DNA of 21,773 bases, the filler included, from an uncultured virus (IMG/VR IMGVR_UViG_2061766007_000461) (lineage: Duplodnaviria; Heunggongvirae; Uroviricota; Caudoviricetes). It is 2 parts of one record of this genome, joined end to end, with 100 filler letters (N's around TTAATTAATTAA, not from the genome) between each part and the next. Parts side by side here need not be neighbours in the genome. Positions count along the whole stretch, not along the records: positions 1 to 10,515 come from IMGVR_UViG_2061766007_000461; 1 more part is not named here. One strand, 5' to 3'. The notes below the pieces were generated by a model. It made no database searches. It had not been told where the DNA came from and saw nothing but the letters and a program-made list of their open reading frames with translations. Within the stretch, counting starts at the first letter, position 1. Each line of letters begins with the position of its first letter. Made by a program: the position numbers and the translations under genes. Below, piece by piece: positions 3,274-15,832 of the stretch.

Positions 3274-3302
3274 ATTGTATCCCGTTCCCGGACTATTGTC
3301 AA
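3274..3302 (-). promoter_or_regulatory. Sigma-A type promoter for the HTH gene
   Basis: TTGACA (3302-3297), 17 nt, TACAAT (3279-3274). A 9-bp inverted repeat GGGATACAA/TTGTATCCC (3251-3259, 3275-3283) overlaps the -10. Confidence 0.8.
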
Positions 3303-4276
3303 GCGACGTGTTTCAGGTAAGAGCTCTTGATTCNNNNNNNNNNNNNNNNNNNNNNNNTATCAATCTTGTCGTGTCCGGCGACAATTGCGACCTCCTGAAT
3401 GGGCATATCATGATTGAGCAGCATCGTGATCAATGTTCTCCGGAATCTGTGAGGGTGGACGTTCTCAACCCCGGCCCGCTTGCCAAGGGCCTTCAGCATG
3501 ATTCTCACTCCGTTGGGAGATAAGCGTTCTCCGCGCAGTCCCGTAAACAGCGGTTCCTTGTAGCTGCGGTTTTTCAACGCCAGATACTCGCGTAGCGTCA
3601 TAAGCGCAATGTCGTTCAGGTACACTGTCCGCTGCTTGTTGCCTTTCCCCAGCACCGTGCATTCGCCATTCTCAAGGTCAACGTCATCCTTGTTGAGTTG
3701 GGTTACCTCGCTGATTCGGCATCCGGTGCTCAGCAGAAAATTGATAATCGCCATATCCCGGGGATTTTTGCAACTTCTCCGGAGCTTTTCAATCTCGGAA
3801 TCGCTGAATGCTTCCCTGACCTTTTTCTGGCATTTGATAGGGCCCACGTTTCGCATGGGGTTGATCATGATGAGCTTTTCCTGCTCAAGCCATCCAAAGA
3901 AAGCGTTGAGCACTTCCCGGATCCCGTTCACGGTTGAGTCTTGCACACCGCGCGTCTGCTCCGCGGCCAGATAATCCCGGACTGTAAAGGNNNNNNNNNN
4001 NNNNNNNNNNNCGTCAGCGGCTTTCACGAACCGCTCAATAATGTACCTGTACCGGACAAGCGTTTTGTCGGACTTGTTCTCGGCCTTCTTGGCGTTGATA
4101 TACGCATCAATCATGTCGCTCGCGCTGCCTGTTGCGGTCGTTGTCCGGGTAATGTCGTACCCGTCCAGATGTTCGTTGATCTCTTCCATCGCTTCGTCAA
4201 ACATATTTGCGAACATACGAGGCCGTAAGGTGCCGTCCACCTGATGCAGAAGCATCACTTTGTCTTGGATTGCCAT
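3299..4276 (-). CDS. XerD-like tyrosine recombinase with N-terminal SAM-like core-binding domain
   Basis: LLSTGCRISE (R), VLGKGNKQR (K), HPHRFRRT (HxxR), AGHDKID (H); catalytic Tyr region in a gap; GAAAGGAG SD. Confidence 0.93.
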   Translation of the reverse strand: MAIQDKVMLLHQVDGTLRPRMFANMFDEAMEEINEHLDGYDITRTTTATGSASDMIDAYINAKKAENKSDKTLVRYRYIIERFVKAADXXXXXXXXFTVRDYLAAEQTRGVQDSTVNGIREVLNAFFGWLEQEKLIMINPMRNVGPIKCQKKVREAFSDSEIEKLRRSCKNPRDMAIINFLLSTGCRISEVTQLNKDDVDLENGECTVLGKGNKQRTVYLNDIALMTLREYLALKNRSYKEPLFTGLRGERLSPNGVRIMLKALGKRAGVENVHPHRFRRTLITMLLNHDMPIQEVAIVAGHDKIDXXXXXXXXXIKSSYLKHVA

Positions 4277-4819: not shown

Positions 4820-4850
4820 CTCAGATTCCTTTCTCCCGGTNNNNNNNNNN

Positions 4851-5290
4851 GGATACTGGCGATGGCGGGAGGGTCAGGAATGGTAGGAAATTTCAGTCAA
4901 TACTATAAAACCACAGCAACGTTTCCTAATGCTCAAAACACAACTGCATGGGGAGATGATGTAAGCGTTGCGTGCTCGTTTGAACCGAAAGTAGTATTTT
5001 TCCATGGCGGTGACAGTACGGTAGCGGGAAATATTTTTGCTGGTGCATTCATTTTTGATTGTGATAACAACGGCAATCATATAAATGCTGGTGTTGTGGA
5101 GTATTTAAATTCGGCAGGTACAGCGATAACAAGAGGCGTATACACGGGATACGATGTTGGTACAGAAGGTTCCAGCAAGGGAGGAACCAACCTATTCAGA
5201 TATTACGAAGGCTTATTTCAGGCAACAAAACAAGGAAATGACCGCAGATATTCAACAACAGACACATACACATTTGAATTTTACGGTTAA
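4851..5290 (+). CDS. C-terminal fragment of a probable tail-associated protein
   Basis: Open frame from the gap to TAA at 5290; G/T/N/aromatic-rich and beta-like; AT-richer DNA. The track ORF 4244..5290 is a false join across the gap. Confidence 0.55.
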
Positions 5291-5308
5291 GAAAGGATGG
5301 TAATAATC

Positions 5309-5668
5309 ATGGCACTCAGACAGATTTTCGTAGTCAACGCAACACAGGTAGTTATCAGTGATTCCCATCCAGAAGGGCTCTTTTCCACGGTCAGCGGTTA
5401 CCCGAAAACATTCGATTCCCGTACCTACAACGCCACGGAAGACAATCCCAACGGCGATGCTGATGCGGCACTGAAAGCGGCGAAATCCGAATACTTCTCC
5501 CGCCTGTCTGCCAACTATTCCGGTTCTGCTACCCGTGTAATGGCAACTGTCACGCTGGAAACCGCACAGGGCAGGACGGTACTTCATGAGAGCATCGGTG
5601 CTTTCCCGGACATGACACCACCGGAACCGGAGTCCGAACCCGAACCCGAACCGGAAGAGGAACAGTAA
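5309..5668 (+). CDS. Tail-region phage protein with acidic (EP)n C-terminus
   Basis: MALRQIFVVNAT...PEPESEPEPEPEEEQ; AAAGGATGG upstream; alternative start at 5297. Confidence 0.75.
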   Translation: MALRQIFVVNATQVVISDSHPEGLFSTVSGYPKTFDSRTYNATEDNPNGDADAALKAAKSEYFSRLSANYSGSATRVMATVTLETAQGRTVLHESIGAFPDMTPPEPESEPEPEPEEEQ

Positions 5669-5696
5669 CGTTTATTGTGACCGAGGAGAAACGAGC

Positions 5697-5798
5697 ATGA
5701 AGTATATAGCAAATCTGATTGTCAGAACATTCAGAGTGCTGACTGCTAAATTCGGACTTTGGTTGTTCAGAAAATCAGCGGATAAGATTGTAAGTTAA
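5697..5798 (+). CDS. 33-aa basic/amphipathic peptide MKYIANLIVRTFRVLTAKFGLWLFRKSADKIVS
   Basis: GAGGAG SD at 5683-5688; below the ORF-track cutoff; lies between two GTGACC-core sites. Confidence 0.5.
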   Translation: MKYIANLIVRTFRVLTAKFGLWLFRKSADKIVS

Positions 5799-5816
5799 AG
5801 TGACCAATAACTTACA
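5789..5816. other. Putative tyrosine-recombinase site (11-6-11, dif-like)
   Basis: TGTAAGTTAAA-GTGACC-AATAACTTACA; the outer 9 bp form a perfect inverted repeat. Confidence 0.6.
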
Positions 5817-5949
5817 CAAACTGTTGCCATGAATAGCCCTCAACCCATTGAAAAATAAGGCTTGACAGCGTTTCAATTATGTGTTAGCGTGATATTGATC
5901 GGTGCGCACGATTGGAACTGTTGGCAAAGGGAGTTTATGGAGGGCTAAG

Positions 5950-6174
5950 ATGAAAAGGATTACGTTTGGACAGTTATTGCAGTATTCAGACCCGGTAGAC
6001 CGGGTGCAAGTGGTTTCCGGTGATCAGGACTGGGAGGAAGCGGACGAGCTGAACGTGAAGTCTGAGCTTCTGAAACCTTTCGGGAATTATGTTGTTCTGT
6101 TTATGCGGCTTGAGAAAACCGTTGGTGGCAATCCTGTTATCAGGGTAGCTATAGAAAAAGAGAAAGGGGTATGA
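5950..6174 (+). CDS. Hypothetical protein (74 aa)
   Basis: GGAGGG SD before ATG 5950; directly upstream of the holin. Confidence 0.7.
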   Translation: MKRITFGQLLQYSDPVDRVQVVSGDQDWEEADELNVKSELLKPFGNYVVLFMRLEKTVGGNPVIRVAIEKEKGV

Positions 6175-6177
6175 ACT

Positions 6178-6420
6178 ATGAACATTGACTGGAAGCGGAA
6201 ACTGACGAGCAGGAAATTCTGGGCGGCTGTATGCAATTTCGTTGGTATGCTTGTTATCGCCTTTGGTGCTTCTGCCGGGACTGCCGAAAAGGTAACCGCC
6301 CTGATTATGGCGGGAGCAACGGTGATTGCGTACATCATAGCCGAAGGACTGGTTGATGCGGCGAACGTAGATACGATTGAGCTTGATCCGGTTGAGGTTG
6401 AGATAAAACCGAAAGCGTAA
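6178..6420 (+). CDS. Phage holin
   Basis: IDWKRKLTSRKFWAAV N-terminus, two hydrophobic helices and YIIAEGLVDAA, typical of a Firmicute phage holin family. Confidence 0.88.
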   Translation: MNIDWKRKLTSRKFWAAVCNFVGMLVIAFGASAGTAEKVTALIMAGATVIAYIIAEGLVDAANVDTIELDPVEVEIKPKA

Positions 6421-6553
6421 CCGCCTGAAGAAGCGGAAGAATAATGCTATCAGTGGTTGCTTCCGAAATGGAAGCAACCACGCCTTGGTTGAAGTCAACA
6501 TTTTATGGTATTTTATGGTGGTTTAGGGTAACCCGAAATATTCAGGAGGAAAC

Positions 6554-6811
6554 ATGGAGAATAAATGTCAGAACTGTGACGAAAAGCAAGCCTGTATTCC
6601 CTTTTTCGCCCACGAAAATACGCTGATGCACTACAACCACGCCAACCGCAGAATGCTGATTGCGCTGGTCTGCGTTTGCGTCACGTTCATCCTGACCATC
6701 GTTATTTTCGTGAGCGGATATACCCAGCGGGAAAAGAACTGGTTGGACACGATTGACCGGATACAGCGCACGGAGGTGACGGATGGAGTACAGCAACAGC
6801 CAAATCCGTGA
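6554..6811 (+). CDS. Single-TM phage membrane protein (85 aa)
   Basis: AGGAGG SD; NRRMLIALVCVCVTFILTIVIFV transmembrane segment. Confidence 0.75.
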   Translation: MENKCQNCDEKQACIPFFAHENTLMHYNHANRRMLIALVCVCVTFILTIVIFVSGYTQREKNWLDTIDRIQRTEVTDGVQQQPNP

Positions 6812-6983
6812 GCTGATCGGGGAGTATATCCACAGCGAGCGTGACCGGAAGATTCTTGAGCGGCGGCTGATTGACGGAATCGTCTTTGAGCGGCTGGCTG
6901 AAGAGTTTGAAATGAGTCCGAAACAGGTGCGGGTCATCGTCCATCGTCAGGAGGAAATTCTCTTCCGGCATCTTCCCGGCTGA
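6783..6983 (+). CDS. Small HTH protein (sigma-70 region-4-like)
   Basis: ERDRKILERRLIDGIVFERLAEEFEMSPKQVRVIV helix-turn-helix; GGAGG SD. Confidence 0.8.
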   Translation: MEYSNSQIRELIGEYIHSERDRKILERRLIDGIVFERLAEEFEMSPKQVRVIVHRQEEILFRHLPG

Positions 6984-6997
6984 AGCCGGGATTTTTT
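6974..6997 (+). terminator. Rho-independent terminator
   Basis: TCCCGGCT-GA-AGCCGGGA-TTTTTT overlapping the stop codon. Confidence 0.75.
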
Positions 6998-7003
6998 GTT
7001 TCA

Positions 7004-7381
7004 CCGAAAAATGAATATGCCTATTTGTGCGTAAAAGGCACATCTTACGCATTTCAACCCGTAGATGGACTCTTACCCATTTGAATTGCGAGACGCAGGT
7101 AAATGCGTAGGAGCTTGGTAGCTCCAGCGGTTTCGGGCTTGGATTTTTTTCGGCTTTCCGGACTGTTTCCGGACTGTTTCCGGTGCGTTTTTACTCCGGA
7201 AGCGAAAATTGATATATGCTTATTTGTGCGTAAAAGGCACCTTCCTGCCATTTTACCCTCCGGATGGACTCTAACTCATTCAAAGAGCGAGACGCAGGTA
7301 AACGCTTCGGAGCTTGGTAAATCCACCACTCCGGGACTTGGATTTTTTCGGTGATTTTCCGGGCGGGAAGCCAGCGAAATT
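7004..7381. repeat. Diverged tandem repeat, two copies, period 199 nt
   Basis: Identical blocks TATTTGTGCGTAAAAGGCAC, GATGGACTCT, GCGAGACGCAGGTAAA, GGAGCTTGGTA and CTTGGATTTTTT at about 7015-7153 and 7214-7351. Confidence 0.9.
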
Positions 7382-7391
7382 NNNNNNNNNN

Positions 7392-8516
7392 AACAGCCGT
7401 CCATGATATTGACCTCATACGTTTTGTTCGCTTCCAGTGCTGTCGGGTCTGCACCAATCCACTTCATGGTCTGGCCTGTCGGCGGGGTAACCGTCAGCAC
7501 GGTAGCCGTGNNNNNNNNNNNNNNNNNNNNNNNNNNNNNNNNNNNNNNNNNNNNNNNNNNNNNNNNNNNNNNNNNNNNNNNNNNNNNNNNNNNNNNNNNN
7601 NNNNNNNGCTGATGGTTTCAGGGGCGTTGAGCATATCGCTGATTGCGGATTTTGCAGATTCGGTGTAGGTGCCGACAGCGTTACTGGACGCAGACTGCGT
7701 GGAGTCTCCGGCGGCTTTGGCAAGGCCATAGAAAACAGACCTGTGTTGTCTGTTTGGTGTTATAGGCTTATTTGTAGCTGTTCCCTCTTTGGTGTTTGTA
7801 TCATTCGCCGGGACTGTCTGTATTATCCCGGTATTTGAGATATTAACTCCATATGCCGTTTCACCAGTATACGCCTTTACAACGCCCGGAGCGGTTGAAC
7901 TTGCAAGTGGAATATTCGCCACGCCCTGACTGACAACGGAAGCTCCGTCTATCTGAACATCACTGACACCCCCGCCACCGCTGGCTTCCNNNNNNNNNNN
8001 NNNNNNNNNNNNNNNNNNNNNNNNNNNNNNNNNNNNNNNNNNNNNNNNNNNNNNNNNNNNNNNNNNNNNNNNNNNNNNNNNNNNNNNNNCATCACTGGAA
8101 ATTGGCAACAGTTTATCCGCGCTCCACGTCTTGTCGGTATCCCCGGTTCCGGCAGTATCGTCAATCAGGATGGTCGGATCTCCGTCCGCTCCATCATTGA
8201 CCGTCTGTGTCGTGGTGCCGTTTTTATCGGTAATGGTAATCGTCGCTACCTTCCCGGATTTGGTGACGGCTGCGGTAGGGGAAAAACCATCGTCGCCGGG
8301 GTCGCCCTTTGAACCGTCGGTTACAGTCGCTGTCGTGGTTCCGTTTTTATCCGTAACTGTTATTGTCGCAACATTGCCGGATTTGCTGACTGATGCAGCA
8401 GGGGAAAAACCATCGTCGCCGGGATCGCCTTTGTCGCCCTTCAGGCAATCCGCGCTCTGATACTGCCCATTCTCTTTTTTATATTTGAGCGTGGCCGGTT
8501 GAATCGTTATAGGCAT
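7392..8516 (-). CDS. Tail fibre protein with collagen-like and ~42-aa repeats (gapped)
   Basis: KGDKGDPGDDG; two copies of GFSP.A.V.KSG.VATIT.TDKNGTTT; IDDTAGTGDTDKTWSADKL; GGAGG SD. Continuity across three gaps is assumed. Confidence 0.75.
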
Positions 8517-8605
8517 ACCATCCACCTCCGGATCTCATAATCTCGTATTATATGCTTCTAACTGTTAAAAATTCTCGGTTCGCATTTCGGTCACAATTAC
8601 TAATC

Positions 8606-10515
8606 TCAGAATGTCCCATAAGTGTCATACACTTCCGACCAAAGCATGACAGCAACTTTGCCCTGTGTTACGTTTGTCTGAATAAGGTCAAGCACATCAC
8701 GCAGGAAAGTTTCCGTCACATCAACCCCTATCTCATGCATTACAAGCGTTACCCATACAGGGGTTTGATATGCTGTCCTTGTGTTCAGCCATGATTCAAA
8801 ATCATCAATATCATTATTGAAATTGTTCATCATGGTGAATGTCATGCCGTTGTATGGGGGATTTGTGCCGTAAGCATCGGAGAAGTCATAATACAAATAC
8901 AGATAAGGATCAAGTTTTTCCTTTAACGCTGCATCAGGTGTAGAATTTGCAACAGCAGTTCCCCTAATATGGATTCCGTTATCTTCAAAGGTTCTTTTAC
9001 TGTCAAGGAACAGTTCTTTGATTTTTGTCGCATCAGCAAACGTTGTGTCAGGATGTACTAAAACCNNNNNNNNNNNNNNNNNNNNNNNNNNNNNNNNNNN
9101 NNNNNNNNNNNNNNNNNNNNNNNNAACTGTCTTGTCGATGTTTTTCACACACGCAGCAACATCAAGCGGAAAACCATATTCTCCTGTGATAATCTTTGCA
9201 AACAGGTCAATATCTGTCCGCAGATCATCAACACGGAGAGATATTATCATTTTCGGATAAGTACCCCATGAGAAGTTTTTCGCAATAGCCATAAACCGCT
9301 GACGAAGTACACTATTCAAATAATCGTCATCGTTTTTGATTGCTGTGATATTCTGTGCGTTTTTCTGCACCTTGCTCCCCATGCTGATTCTTTCAAGTGC
9401 AACCGTGCTGTTAATGTTGCCTTGCACAACCGCATGAGTAGCACCAACAGGAACTGTGACTTCCTGCTCTGTAAATGTCACAGTTTGACCTGTGTAGCAA
9501 TCGTATGAAATAAACGTGCTTTCAGATGCGGAACTTGAATCATAGAACAGAATACCTGCAACAGATGCCTGTGATTTTGCTGTGACATACAATTTTTCAC
9601 CGGCAGTAACTTCAATTACCTGTGAACACTTTGCCTGATCGTATGTTCCATACTTGCCTGTCAGTTTATAGTATTTCCCTTCTGTCATTGTAAGCGCAAC
9701 AGAAGAATGTTCCTCTTCAAAAACTGCATCGTATGTATCATCAACCTTGTCCTCATCAATCTGCAAGGCTGCAATATCTGTTGCGTTTTTGTCTATCTTG
9801 TTTATTGTTTCACGTTTTTTCAGCGCAAGTGAACCGTCAATGTCACCCTGTACTATGCAATGTGTAGCACCTGTCGGAACTGTTACTTCCTGATTTGTGA
9901 ATGTTACGGTTTCCCCTGTATAGCAATCGTAAGAAACAAAGGTGCTTTCTGAAAGTGTATCCGAATTATAAAAGATGATTCCTGCAACTGCGCTGCGTGA
10001 TTTGGCAGTTACTAATACTTTACTTCCTGCCGTGACGGGAATAACCTGTGAGCATTTTGCCTGATTGTATGTCGAATGTTTCCCGGTTAATTTATAGTAT
10101 TCACCTTCACTTATTGTGAGTGAAACATCAACATTATTTGTCTGATAAATCGCATCGGAAAAGGAAGTTATTGCGCTCTGTAAATCGGTTAGTTCCGTAT
10201 AAGTAGGAACCTGTACACTCTGAGGAGGGGTCTCTGTAAACCAAACCTTATTCGCATGCTCCGTAGGCTGCAAGTCCTGTACTTTGACAATATCGTCGGC
10301 ATAATCTTCGGTGTCCGAAAGGATCTCGGCCTTGTCTGCCGTTGTCCAGTAGTCAACCCCACGAACAGGATCGTGACCGTCTTTTCCGTCATGCCCGTCG
10401 GCAACGTCAAACGTCTTCGCCCCTTCCTTGTCGGTTATAGTTACATTGTGGCCATCTGCGCTCGGTGTAACTTCAACAATAGGGGAGAACCCGTCAAACG
10501 CGCCGGATTCTTTCG
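8606..10515 (-). CDS. Tail fibre/receptor-binding protein with two beta-repeat domains and a C-terminal NodB-type polysaccharide deacetylase domain (5' end in gap)
   Basis: The frame stays open upstream of 10273 (GFSPIVEVT...DGKDGHDPVRGVDYWTTADKAEI). Duplicated EGxYYKLTG...VPxGATH domain; ISLRVDD, VLVH and TLVMHEI motifs. Confidence 0.8.
10162..10189. other. Putative recombinase site inside the tail gene
   Basis: AGGAAGTTATT-GCGCTC-TGTAAATCGGT; the left arm resembles TGTAAGTTATT of 5789-5816; encodes TDLQSAITS. Confidence 0.5.
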
Positions 10516-10615
10516 NNNNNNNNNNNNNNNNNNNNNNNNNNNNNNNNNNNNNNNNNNNNTTAATTAATTAANNNNNNNNNNNNNNNNNNNNNNNNNNNNN
10601 NNNNNNNNNNNNNNN

Positions 10616-11857: not shown

Positions 11858-11885
11858 TCACCTCTATTGTCTCCTTTAAGTTACA
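11858..11885 (-). other. Putative recombinase site
   Basis: TGTAACTTAAA-GGAGAC-AATAGAGGTGA; left arm 10/11 identical to the 5789 arm. Confidence 0.55.
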
Positions 11886-12313: not shown

Positions 12314-12341
12314 GTGCGGTTAAATTGTCCTTTAAGTCACT
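12314..12341 (-). other. Putative recombinase site
   Basis: AGTGACTTAAA-GGACAA-TTTAACCGCAC; contains the stop of 12332..12523. Confidence 0.55.
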
Positions 12342-12537: not shown

Positions 12538-12565
12538 TGTAACTTATTGTGTCAATTTATGCTCC
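12538..12565. other. Putative recombinase site
   Basis: TGTAACTTATT-GTGTCA-ATTTATGCTCC; same core hexamer as 15168-15195. Confidence 0.55.
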
Positions 12566-12598
12566 GGATGCGGCATCACCGTGCTCGCTTAATCCGGA
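12564..12598 (-). repeat. Bulged hairpin element, copy 1
   Basis: 32/35 identical to 15794-15828; CCGGAT/ATCCGG outer stem. Confidence 0.8.
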
Positions 12599-12610
12599 CA
12601 ACCCTGCGCC

Positions 12611-15793: not shown

Positions 15794-15828
15794 CCGGATG
15801 CGGCATCGCTGTGCACGCTTAATCCGGA
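15794..15828 (-). repeat. Bulged hairpin element, copy 2
   Basis: 32/35 identical to 12564-12598; 4 nt after the ssb stop. Confidence 0.8.
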
Positions 15829-15832
15829 TAAA

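Follow-up and report, generated by a model that had tools for sequence, protein, structure and literature searches.

The tail-fibre tip encoded in the window (the whole stretch of DNA analysed here, 21,773 nt from an uncultured tailed phage) is, to judge from comparison with related sequences, exchanged in frame at a short DNA-encoded joint; a recombinase gene in the same stretch encodes a candidate enzyme, and an effect on host range is putative. Phage tip switches already known (Rin and, according to PMC6109161, Gin/Cin/Min) shuffle tips that are stored within one genome. For window-type tips, the store seems to be the phage community as a whole, with a uniform in-frame joint as the place of trade. 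The window supplies a clean natural experiment: its tip recurs, at 94–98% identity, behind another anchor, and the two sequences part within the site. If it is enzyme-driven, such exchange would explain why fibre genes are so extremely mosaic in rumen phages, and would provide a small pair of site and recombinase.

An in-frame joint between fibre anchor and tip

The tail-fibre- or spike-like gene occupies positions 8606–10516 of the minus strand, with 636 codons visible. Its 5′ end is lost at an artificial contig linker (10516–10615; 44 N, TTAATTAATTAA, 44 N) that places stops in all frames, and it is interrupted by one assembly gap (9066–9124) in which 59 N stand for 80 real bases and the frame is kept. 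With 25 N runs in total, the window is a gapped phage bin. The gene encodes an anchor (10186–10513, minus strand), composed of a collagen-flanked surface repeat that scores below cut-off and a QPT module, followed by a 105-aa tandem repeat and a C-terminal domain. Repeat 1 (9806–10120, minus strand) is a predicted β-sandwich resembling carbohydrate-binding modules in weak fold matches, and repeat 2 (9380–9694, minus strand) is identical to it at 71 of 105 aa. The C-terminal domain (8609–9259, minus strand) has a CE4/NodB-like (polysaccharide deacetylase) fold when modelled on the homologue P0183, and the corresponding activity is predicted. The P0183 model (mean pLDDT 64) contains the NodB-type barrel and matches CE4 structures (e.g., 7ax7; E 1.2e-5, target TM 0.65). 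Likewise, Atlas features place the tip C-terminal domain at 0.93 to PF01522 clusters, and the words RVDD and HP are invariant in five sequences. The tip had been described as a repeat plus a deacetylase: the repeat is confirmed, and the deacetylase holds as a fold on the homologue but not as a domain match, since a Pfam search of the window fibre protein returned no deacetylase. The protein's own model is poor (mean pLDDT 45.7) and gave weak fold matches, and a sequence search of solved structures gave 0 matches. When whole chains are compared, the fold of P0183 comes closest to the Haloferax tailed virus 1 turret (E 2.6e-7, TM 0.36). We use the name ‘tail fibre’ because of the collagen-flanked repeat (itself below cut-off), the place of the neighbouring module in tail regions, and this turret match. 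The tip may act in receptor binding and host range.

Anchor and tip meet at the in-frame joint S1 (10169–10182, minus strand), whose sequence TACAG-AGCG-CAATA encodes L-Q-S-A-I and matches the consensus TAWWG-N4-CWWTA at 9 of 10 positions. The 28-mer that the initial annotation described here (10162–10189) is present, its minus strand encodes TDLQSAITS, and the reported shift to AT-richer DNA past the site is real: GC falls from 0.47–0.53 in the anchor (GC3 0.45–0.55) to 0.36–0.45 after it (GC3 mostly 0.30–0.40).

Searches for loci carrying the tip confirmed none in viral, metagenome or genome collections or among GenBank phages, so the DNA of tip relatives rests on contigs from sequencing runs. 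Nineteen runs share words with the stretch, and those that best hold its DNA are labelled bovine gut. Contigs were compared from four runs belonging to four studies (X1, X3, X4 and X6), with X1 serving as the source-like run; contigs of the other three leave most of the anchor uncovered, which we do not count as absence.

Homologues of the fibre gene were expected to lose identity at the LQSA codons, and the drop is sharp. X3, an independent cattle-gut run, covers 8608–10170 at 94–98% identity in several contigs of similar depth (110–150) and also holds a rarer, more distant variant. Its 2,218-nt contig departs from the window at 10170 and continues into a different anchor, whose V-K-S-D-L-T-S end again contains a family site. 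A 167-nt contig from X4 matches 10067–10183, and its remaining 50 letters are unmatched. The converse arrangement is seen in locus L015, which carries a QPT anchor like that of the window, a site at the same codon and unrelated DNA beyond; identical bases number 67 of 107 before the site, 12 of 18 within it and 20 of 65 after it. The anchor is also common to P0089 and P0034, each of the three having another C-terminus (searches with the anchor returned mostly the generic collagen-flanked repeat, and those with the QPT module yielded 0 and 1 loci). At the protein level, all four tip homologues (40–48%) have unrelated N-termini, ending in LKEAI, IKNAL, VKNAL and VKSAI. Their likeness to the window does not in every case start exactly at the junction word: P0181 and P0183 have one repeat, and P0184 has ∼200 extra residues. 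Moreover, although their tips are 94% alike, the window and X3 differ in the three bases that directly adjoin the spacer on its tip side, so the site arm does not simply travel with the tip. These comparisons indicate that the 5′ joint is a real, DNA-encoded exchange joint at which anchors and tips meet in new combinations. In L015, the site connects two different anchors, at 8543 and 10737, with downstream stretches that are homologous (89%, 129 nt). The contig of L116 ends within the in-frame site, as an assembly branch at a joint would cause.

A palindromic site family encoded at the DNA level

At DNA level, the codons for LQSA are at the same time an imperfect palindrome of 14 bp, TAWWG-N4-CWWTA, which forms a family across many rumen phages; we found no description of this family in the open-access literature (main texts). 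Its conservation in the DNA was examined in 58 viral loci, collected through another anchor module (DDTAG-WSADK, from gene 2) and picked on protein alone. Scoring covered 59 distinct module occurrences in 49 loci, with a site counted at ≥9/10 (at least nine matches) within 20 codons. The palindrome is present at 16 of the 59 junctions, against 2.2 ± 1.4 (maximum 8) in 1,000 synonymous shuffles, a figure that is flattered because the W positions were read off the same loci; 14 of the 16 matching junctions use one reading frame. The stricter TTAAAG-N4-CTTTAA, which had been fixed earlier from non-coding copies, occurs at 4/59 junctions versus 0.38. In 15 words picked by protein pattern, leucine is TTA in five of six cases (background 12%) and serine is AGY in 10 of 11, and the second residue is Lys encoded by AAG (5/5), Leu encoded by TTG (5/5), or Met (ATG). 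The constant use of AAG, TTG or ATG at this residue points beyond a protein constraint. A profile built from 19 junctions of other phages ranks 10165–10186 first among 43,504 positions of the window; the joint scores 19.5 bits (leave-one-out range 7.9–24.1), and 0.115% of 20,000 synonymous recodings of the window codons reach this score. The shuffles and the codon skew show that the motif is conserved at synonymous positions, as the initial annotation required of a swap site. These patterns establish the site family, its frame and its constraint at the DNA level.

The same data bear on a protein hinge, in which L-K-S-A-I would be a coiled-coil neck and the DNA pattern would merely follow the amino acids. 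Under synonymous shuffling the protein is unchanged yet the motif disappears, which largely refutes this explanation, and copies of the motif exist in non-coding DNA. The joint does lie within a predicted helix (residues 107–126, low confidence), but we judge a hinge alone to be very improbable.

Sites of the family also occur outside the fibre frame. Of 73 loci with gene 4, which encodes a small protein conserved in this kind of tail locus, nine carry a perfect site within 200 nt of that gene (0.4 expected). Where DNA homology ends, a site lies no more than 15 nt away in 15 of 841 cases, against 4.3 ± 2.1 (maximum 12 in 100), in a test that left out five duplicate loci (L122, L029, L051, L056 and L127). 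An earlier count of such ends, 3/130 versus 0.3, was set aside, as two of the three were one event counted twice. General enrichment of sites behind stop codons is weak (34/837 versus 23.5 ± 4.8), and the loci contain 56 perfect sites where 25–32 arise by chance, so about half are expected. The arms of 54 perfect sites, compared for a possible division into two pure palindromes and their hybrids, include TAAAG/CAATA (12), TAAAG/CTTTA (9), TATTG/CATTA (7) and TATTG/CAATA (4). In-frame spacers are AGCG, AGTG, AACG and GACG; downstream spacers are TGAC, GTCG and GACA. An in-frame site combined with a downstream TGAC site is also present in L110, L117 and L131. On the second contig of the window, two site-like sequences lie at or just past the stops of small genes: 12321–12334 (9/10, with GACA, a common spacer; second in profile rank) and 11865–11878 (10/10). 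Four loci (L017, L018, L049 and L120) have ORFs interrupted at TAG, which suggests that they read TAG as a residue.

Real gene order and the 3′ side of the exchange

The scaffold misplaces the genes that follow the fibre gene. In X1, a single contig connects 4851 to 7392 on opposite strands, and genes 2, 3 and 4 are consecutive in the six loci examined; 4851–7381 is therefore flipped in the scaffold. The true order is the fibre gene, the element at 8585–8598, gene 2, gene 3, gene 4, the element at 5673–5686, a mini-ORF, the site at 5796–5809 and the holin-like gene (6178–6420, plus strand). Gene 2 (7392–8525, minus strand) is a second fibre-like gene that carries the DDTAG-WSADK module, contains two gaps and continues into 4851 in the real DNA. 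It is followed by the C-terminal part of gene 3 (4851–5290, plus strand) and by gene 4 (5297–5668, plus strand). Since the segment is flipped, the elements at 8585–8598, 5673–5686 and 5796–5809 share one orientation, as direct repeats, and the inverted orientation of the two post-stop elements was rejected as a product of the scaffold error. The flipped contig is bordered by ten-N joins at 4841–4850 and 7382–7391, where strand-based readings mislead. A 135-nt direct repeat (7015–7149 and 7214–7348, 76% identical) lies beside a scaffold gap and may be two variants set in tandem by the assembler. The gap at 7990–8089 in gene 2 (118 real bases) directly follows the WSADK module, a position at which an in-frame site is common among relatives. 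Just past the stop codons of two early genes is a 38-nt direct repeat (12564–12601 and 15794–15831, 89%). A promoter scan of the window gave one site, with 3.0 expected.

The initial annotation placed a 3′ crossover at 8589–8594, inside an element behind the fibre stop. This element (8585–8598, minus strand; AATTG-TGAC-CGAAA) is a degenerate site, 7/10, and is not the edge of shared DNA. In X3 and X6 alike, the sequence shared with the window ends on the stop codon (8608), which leaves 13 nt before the proposed spacer; over these 13 nt the window and X3/X6 are alike at 4/13 bases, so the post-stop bases are not carried along with the tip. The proposed crossover therefore fails, and the tip is not established as a unit cut at 10173–10178 and 8589–8594; what stands of the in-frame swap is its 5′ joint, with edges in X3, X4 and L015. 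The downstream edge of an exchange need not be a site directly after the stop.

A similar element follows gene 4 (5673–5686, plus strand; TATTG-TGAC-CGAGG); it is a half site, also 7/10, and its right half overlaps the ribosome-binding site of the mini-ORF. The sequence said to be shared behind the two stops does exist, as ATTGTGACCGA is exact at 8587–8597 (minus strand) and 5674–5684 (plus strand), but its significance is marginal: a shared 11-mer among 33 post-stop 30-mers arises in 4.9% of 3,000 simulations, and a consensus score of 7/10 is reached by ∼2% of window positions. Both copies score about −12 bits (rank ∼1,400–1,700) on the profile, which was trained on in-frame sites only. Behind gene 4 of the relatives ATTGTGACCGA is not kept, with 2 of 77 post-stop regions within two mismatches. 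The two elements carry the left arm of the family and the TGAC spacer found in L110, L028 and L131, and may be at most worn or half sites.

The departure of X3 and X6 at 8608 weighs against a self-contained tip cassette, cut at both 10173–10178 and 8589–8594 and moved by excision and integration or by Rin-like inversion. The spacers are also unlike (AGCG at the 10169 joint, TGAC at the 8585 element), neither spare tips nor an inversion at a site was seen in the window or the contigs, and the sole opposite-strand joint (4851/7392) lacks a site and restores the normal gene order. Such a cassette would account for the family left arm and TGAC spacer of both post-stop elements, for the marginal 11-mer and for the sequence TATTG-TGAC-CATTA after the stop in L131. 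It would also fit the string behind the stop in X3 and X6, which has GACC at the same offset and matches at 8/10 in register (by eye), but that string can also be read as a gene start (MAKKTIKE). We consider the two-site cassette improbable.

A 3′ edge on the stop codon is what selection on coding DNA would produce, and it agrees with short-homology exchange that uses no dedicated enzyme. The motif would then be micro-homology for general phage recombination, conserved by repeated copying, with only in-frame products surviving. T-even phages provide the model: receptor-binding parts of the adhesins gp37/gp38 are swapped between phages near conserved motifs, with no dedicated site or enzyme described in the accessible portion of PMC3157838. 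The window motif, however, is a DNA palindrome that recurs outside genes and tolerates Lys, Leu, Met or Gln while the DNA pattern stays, and fourteen degenerate bases with variable spacers offer little homology. Even with the weak enzyme link found under a fixed rule (4/14 versus 3/27; see below), we regard short-homology exchange as unlikely.

The initial annotation missed an intact downstream site, TAAAG-TGAC-CAATA (5796–5809, plus strand), which is one of two 10/10 matches in the window and lies behind three more genes and the mini-ORF from the tip. The mini-ORF (5697–5798, plus strand) encodes 33 aa and is basic, and the site begins with its TAA stop codon. Because the 5673 left arm and the 5796 right arm complement each other exactly, the mini-ORF is possibly a mini-cassette that entered one palindromic site.

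A candidate recombinase and a model of exchange

The candidate enzyme is a XerA-like tyrosine recombinase without an arm domain (3299–4276, minus strand). R187, K211, H276, R279 and H302 are present, and the region of the tyrosine falls in an N gap. The protein scores below the cut-offs for XerC (147 versus 335 bits), XerD (132 versus 330) and XerA. Its gene is not adjacent to the fibre gene, lying among small early-type genes beyond assembly gaps, and the false join at 4841–4850 hides the true distance; no site at ≥9/10 was found near it in the window.

Several relatives associate this enzyme family with the site. L147, L120 and L065 each have a site, a tip, a second site and then, directly or within 1 kb behind that downstream site, a recombinase that is 50, 34 and 36% identical to that of the window, respectively. 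A search with a profile of five sequences detected the recombinase in 7 of 21 records picked by eye for their sites and in 0 of 20 others (p 0.009), a count that includes two profile members, with one shared record dropped; without the two it is 5/19 (p 0.02). Under a fixed rule with sites at ≥9/10, the recombinase is present in 4/14 versus 3/27 records (p 0.20), and among records at least 90% complete with sites at ≥8/10 in 4/6 versus 1/10 (p 0.036); all these p values ignore the relatedness of records. Strong matches (361–525 bits) all fall within the set picked as site-bearing. Five of seven carriers have the gene in a neighbourhood of small non-tail genes, which is also its setting in the window, and the five relatives examined in GenBank lie outside tail loci. 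The link between site and enzyme is thus suggestive, with 3299–4276 as the candidate.

The palindrome could instead be a true recombinase site served by another enzyme, such as the host Xer pair or a helper element, with the window recombinase otherwise engaged, e.g., in resolving genome dimers. G010, G013 and G015 bear sites, are at least 90% complete and yielded no member of the recombinase family, and the setting of the window gene among early-type genes is compatible with such a role. This explanation, which we rate as distinctly unlikely, is set against by the three loci with the same family right behind the downstream site and by the confinement of strong matches to the site-bearing set.

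The explanation we favour, at about even odds, is that tips pass between phage genomes through a XerA-like tyrosine recombinase acting at sites with like spacers, as dif modules move in Acinetobacter. The recombinase would bind both arms of a site and cross over in the spacer, and the phage-borne enzyme at 3299–4276 is the candidate actor. Because in-frame and downstream spacers differ, the tip would be neither excised nor flipped inside one genome. Rather, when two phage genomes reside together, a crossover between the in-frame site of one and that of the other would be followed by resolution, either at another site with a like spacer or through homology farther downstream. The tip would thereby be traded in frame, often together with the genes behind it, and the tip of the window phage would stay fixed until a donor arrives. 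In favour of this exchange are the X3 and X4 edges, L015, the unrelated N-termini of the four tip homologues, the codon constraint, the non-coding copies, the homology ends, and the loci L110/L117/L131 and L147/L120/L065. Against it are the 3′ edge at the stop codon, the three differing bases beside the spacer in X3, tip homologues whose likeness starts away from the junction word, the weak enzyme link under the fixed rule, the position of the enzyme gene away from the tail in most carriers, the weak post-stop enrichment, and the chance expectation for about half of the perfect sites. The contigs of the four runs (contigs, not reads) contain no joints at 10169–10182 or 8585–8598 and no recombination in progress. 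It is possible, if somewhat doubtful, that recombinase-driven cassette exchange is community-wide among rumen phages, with a phage-borne XerA-like enzyme moving tips and accessory mini-genes between unrelated genomes through a fixed-frame fibre site and unlike-spacer partners downstream, much like dif modules but in virion genes.

Integron cassette arrays, with the integrase IntI and attC sites of a long hairpin type, share with the window the unit of an ORF plus a site: the stop codon is the start of the site, at offset 0, in 13 of 34 cases, and 5697–5809 is a possible mini-cassette. They differ in that the window enzyme is far below the cut-off for integron integrases (TIGR02249, 47.9 versus 265 bits) and its sites are 14 bp, with no long attC-type hairpin noted. 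A precedent for the proposed mechanism is the dif modules of Acinetobacter plasmids, in which gene modules lie between two-arm pdif sites with differing short spacers; in PMC13141974, whole genes move by host XerC/XerD, in a model where a cointegrate forms and is resolved at a pair of sites with like spacers. pdif sites have 11-bp arms and a 6-bp spacer (11-6-11), whereas window-type sites are two-arm palindromes with 5-bp core arms and a G-N4-C centre, are carried by phages, include one site in a reading frame and have a candidate enzyme that the phage itself encodes; a need for like spacers is assumed by analogy.

The Rin shufflon, as far as the accounts at hand for Bifidobacterium prophages (PMC6109161) and Eggerthella prophages (PMC8778435) extend, likewise has a short site at which the reading frame passes from a constant N-terminus into a variable, receptor-binding C-terminus, has a second site after the stop and uses a tyrosine recombinase without an arm domain. 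An in-frame crossover site at the boundary of constant and variable parts is present in the window too. Rin, however, has several silent Rv tips, exact asymmetric 8–11 bp repeats, some of them inverted, an adjacent invertase and inversions visible in reads. The window has one tip, degenerate palindromes in direct order, unlike spacers, an enzyme that is not adjacent as assembled and no inversion seen at a site in the contigs. The profile scan gave one strong in-frame site, and downstream genes have their own starts, in a gapped window whose 118-nt gene 2 gap could hide another. With silent tips and exact asymmetric repeats lacking, we do not file the window system as Rin. Arm-less recombinases are reported on some phages in PMC8138268, the available part of which describes no such exchange system.

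Contig depths in X1 bear on where the recombinase lies in the real DNA. Contigs break at the 5796 site, one ending at 5810 and another starting at 5781, and depth falls from 16.5 over the shared genes 3–4 to 10.3 on the holin side; fibre and recombinase contigs have depths of 5.9–7.8. These values suggest that the bin mixes two related phages and that genes 3–4 are common to both as far as the site, and the recombinase contig may follow the 5796 site in one of the two. A second tyrosine recombinase, an integrase-like fragment with gaps that is distinct from 3299–4276, lies at 71–931.
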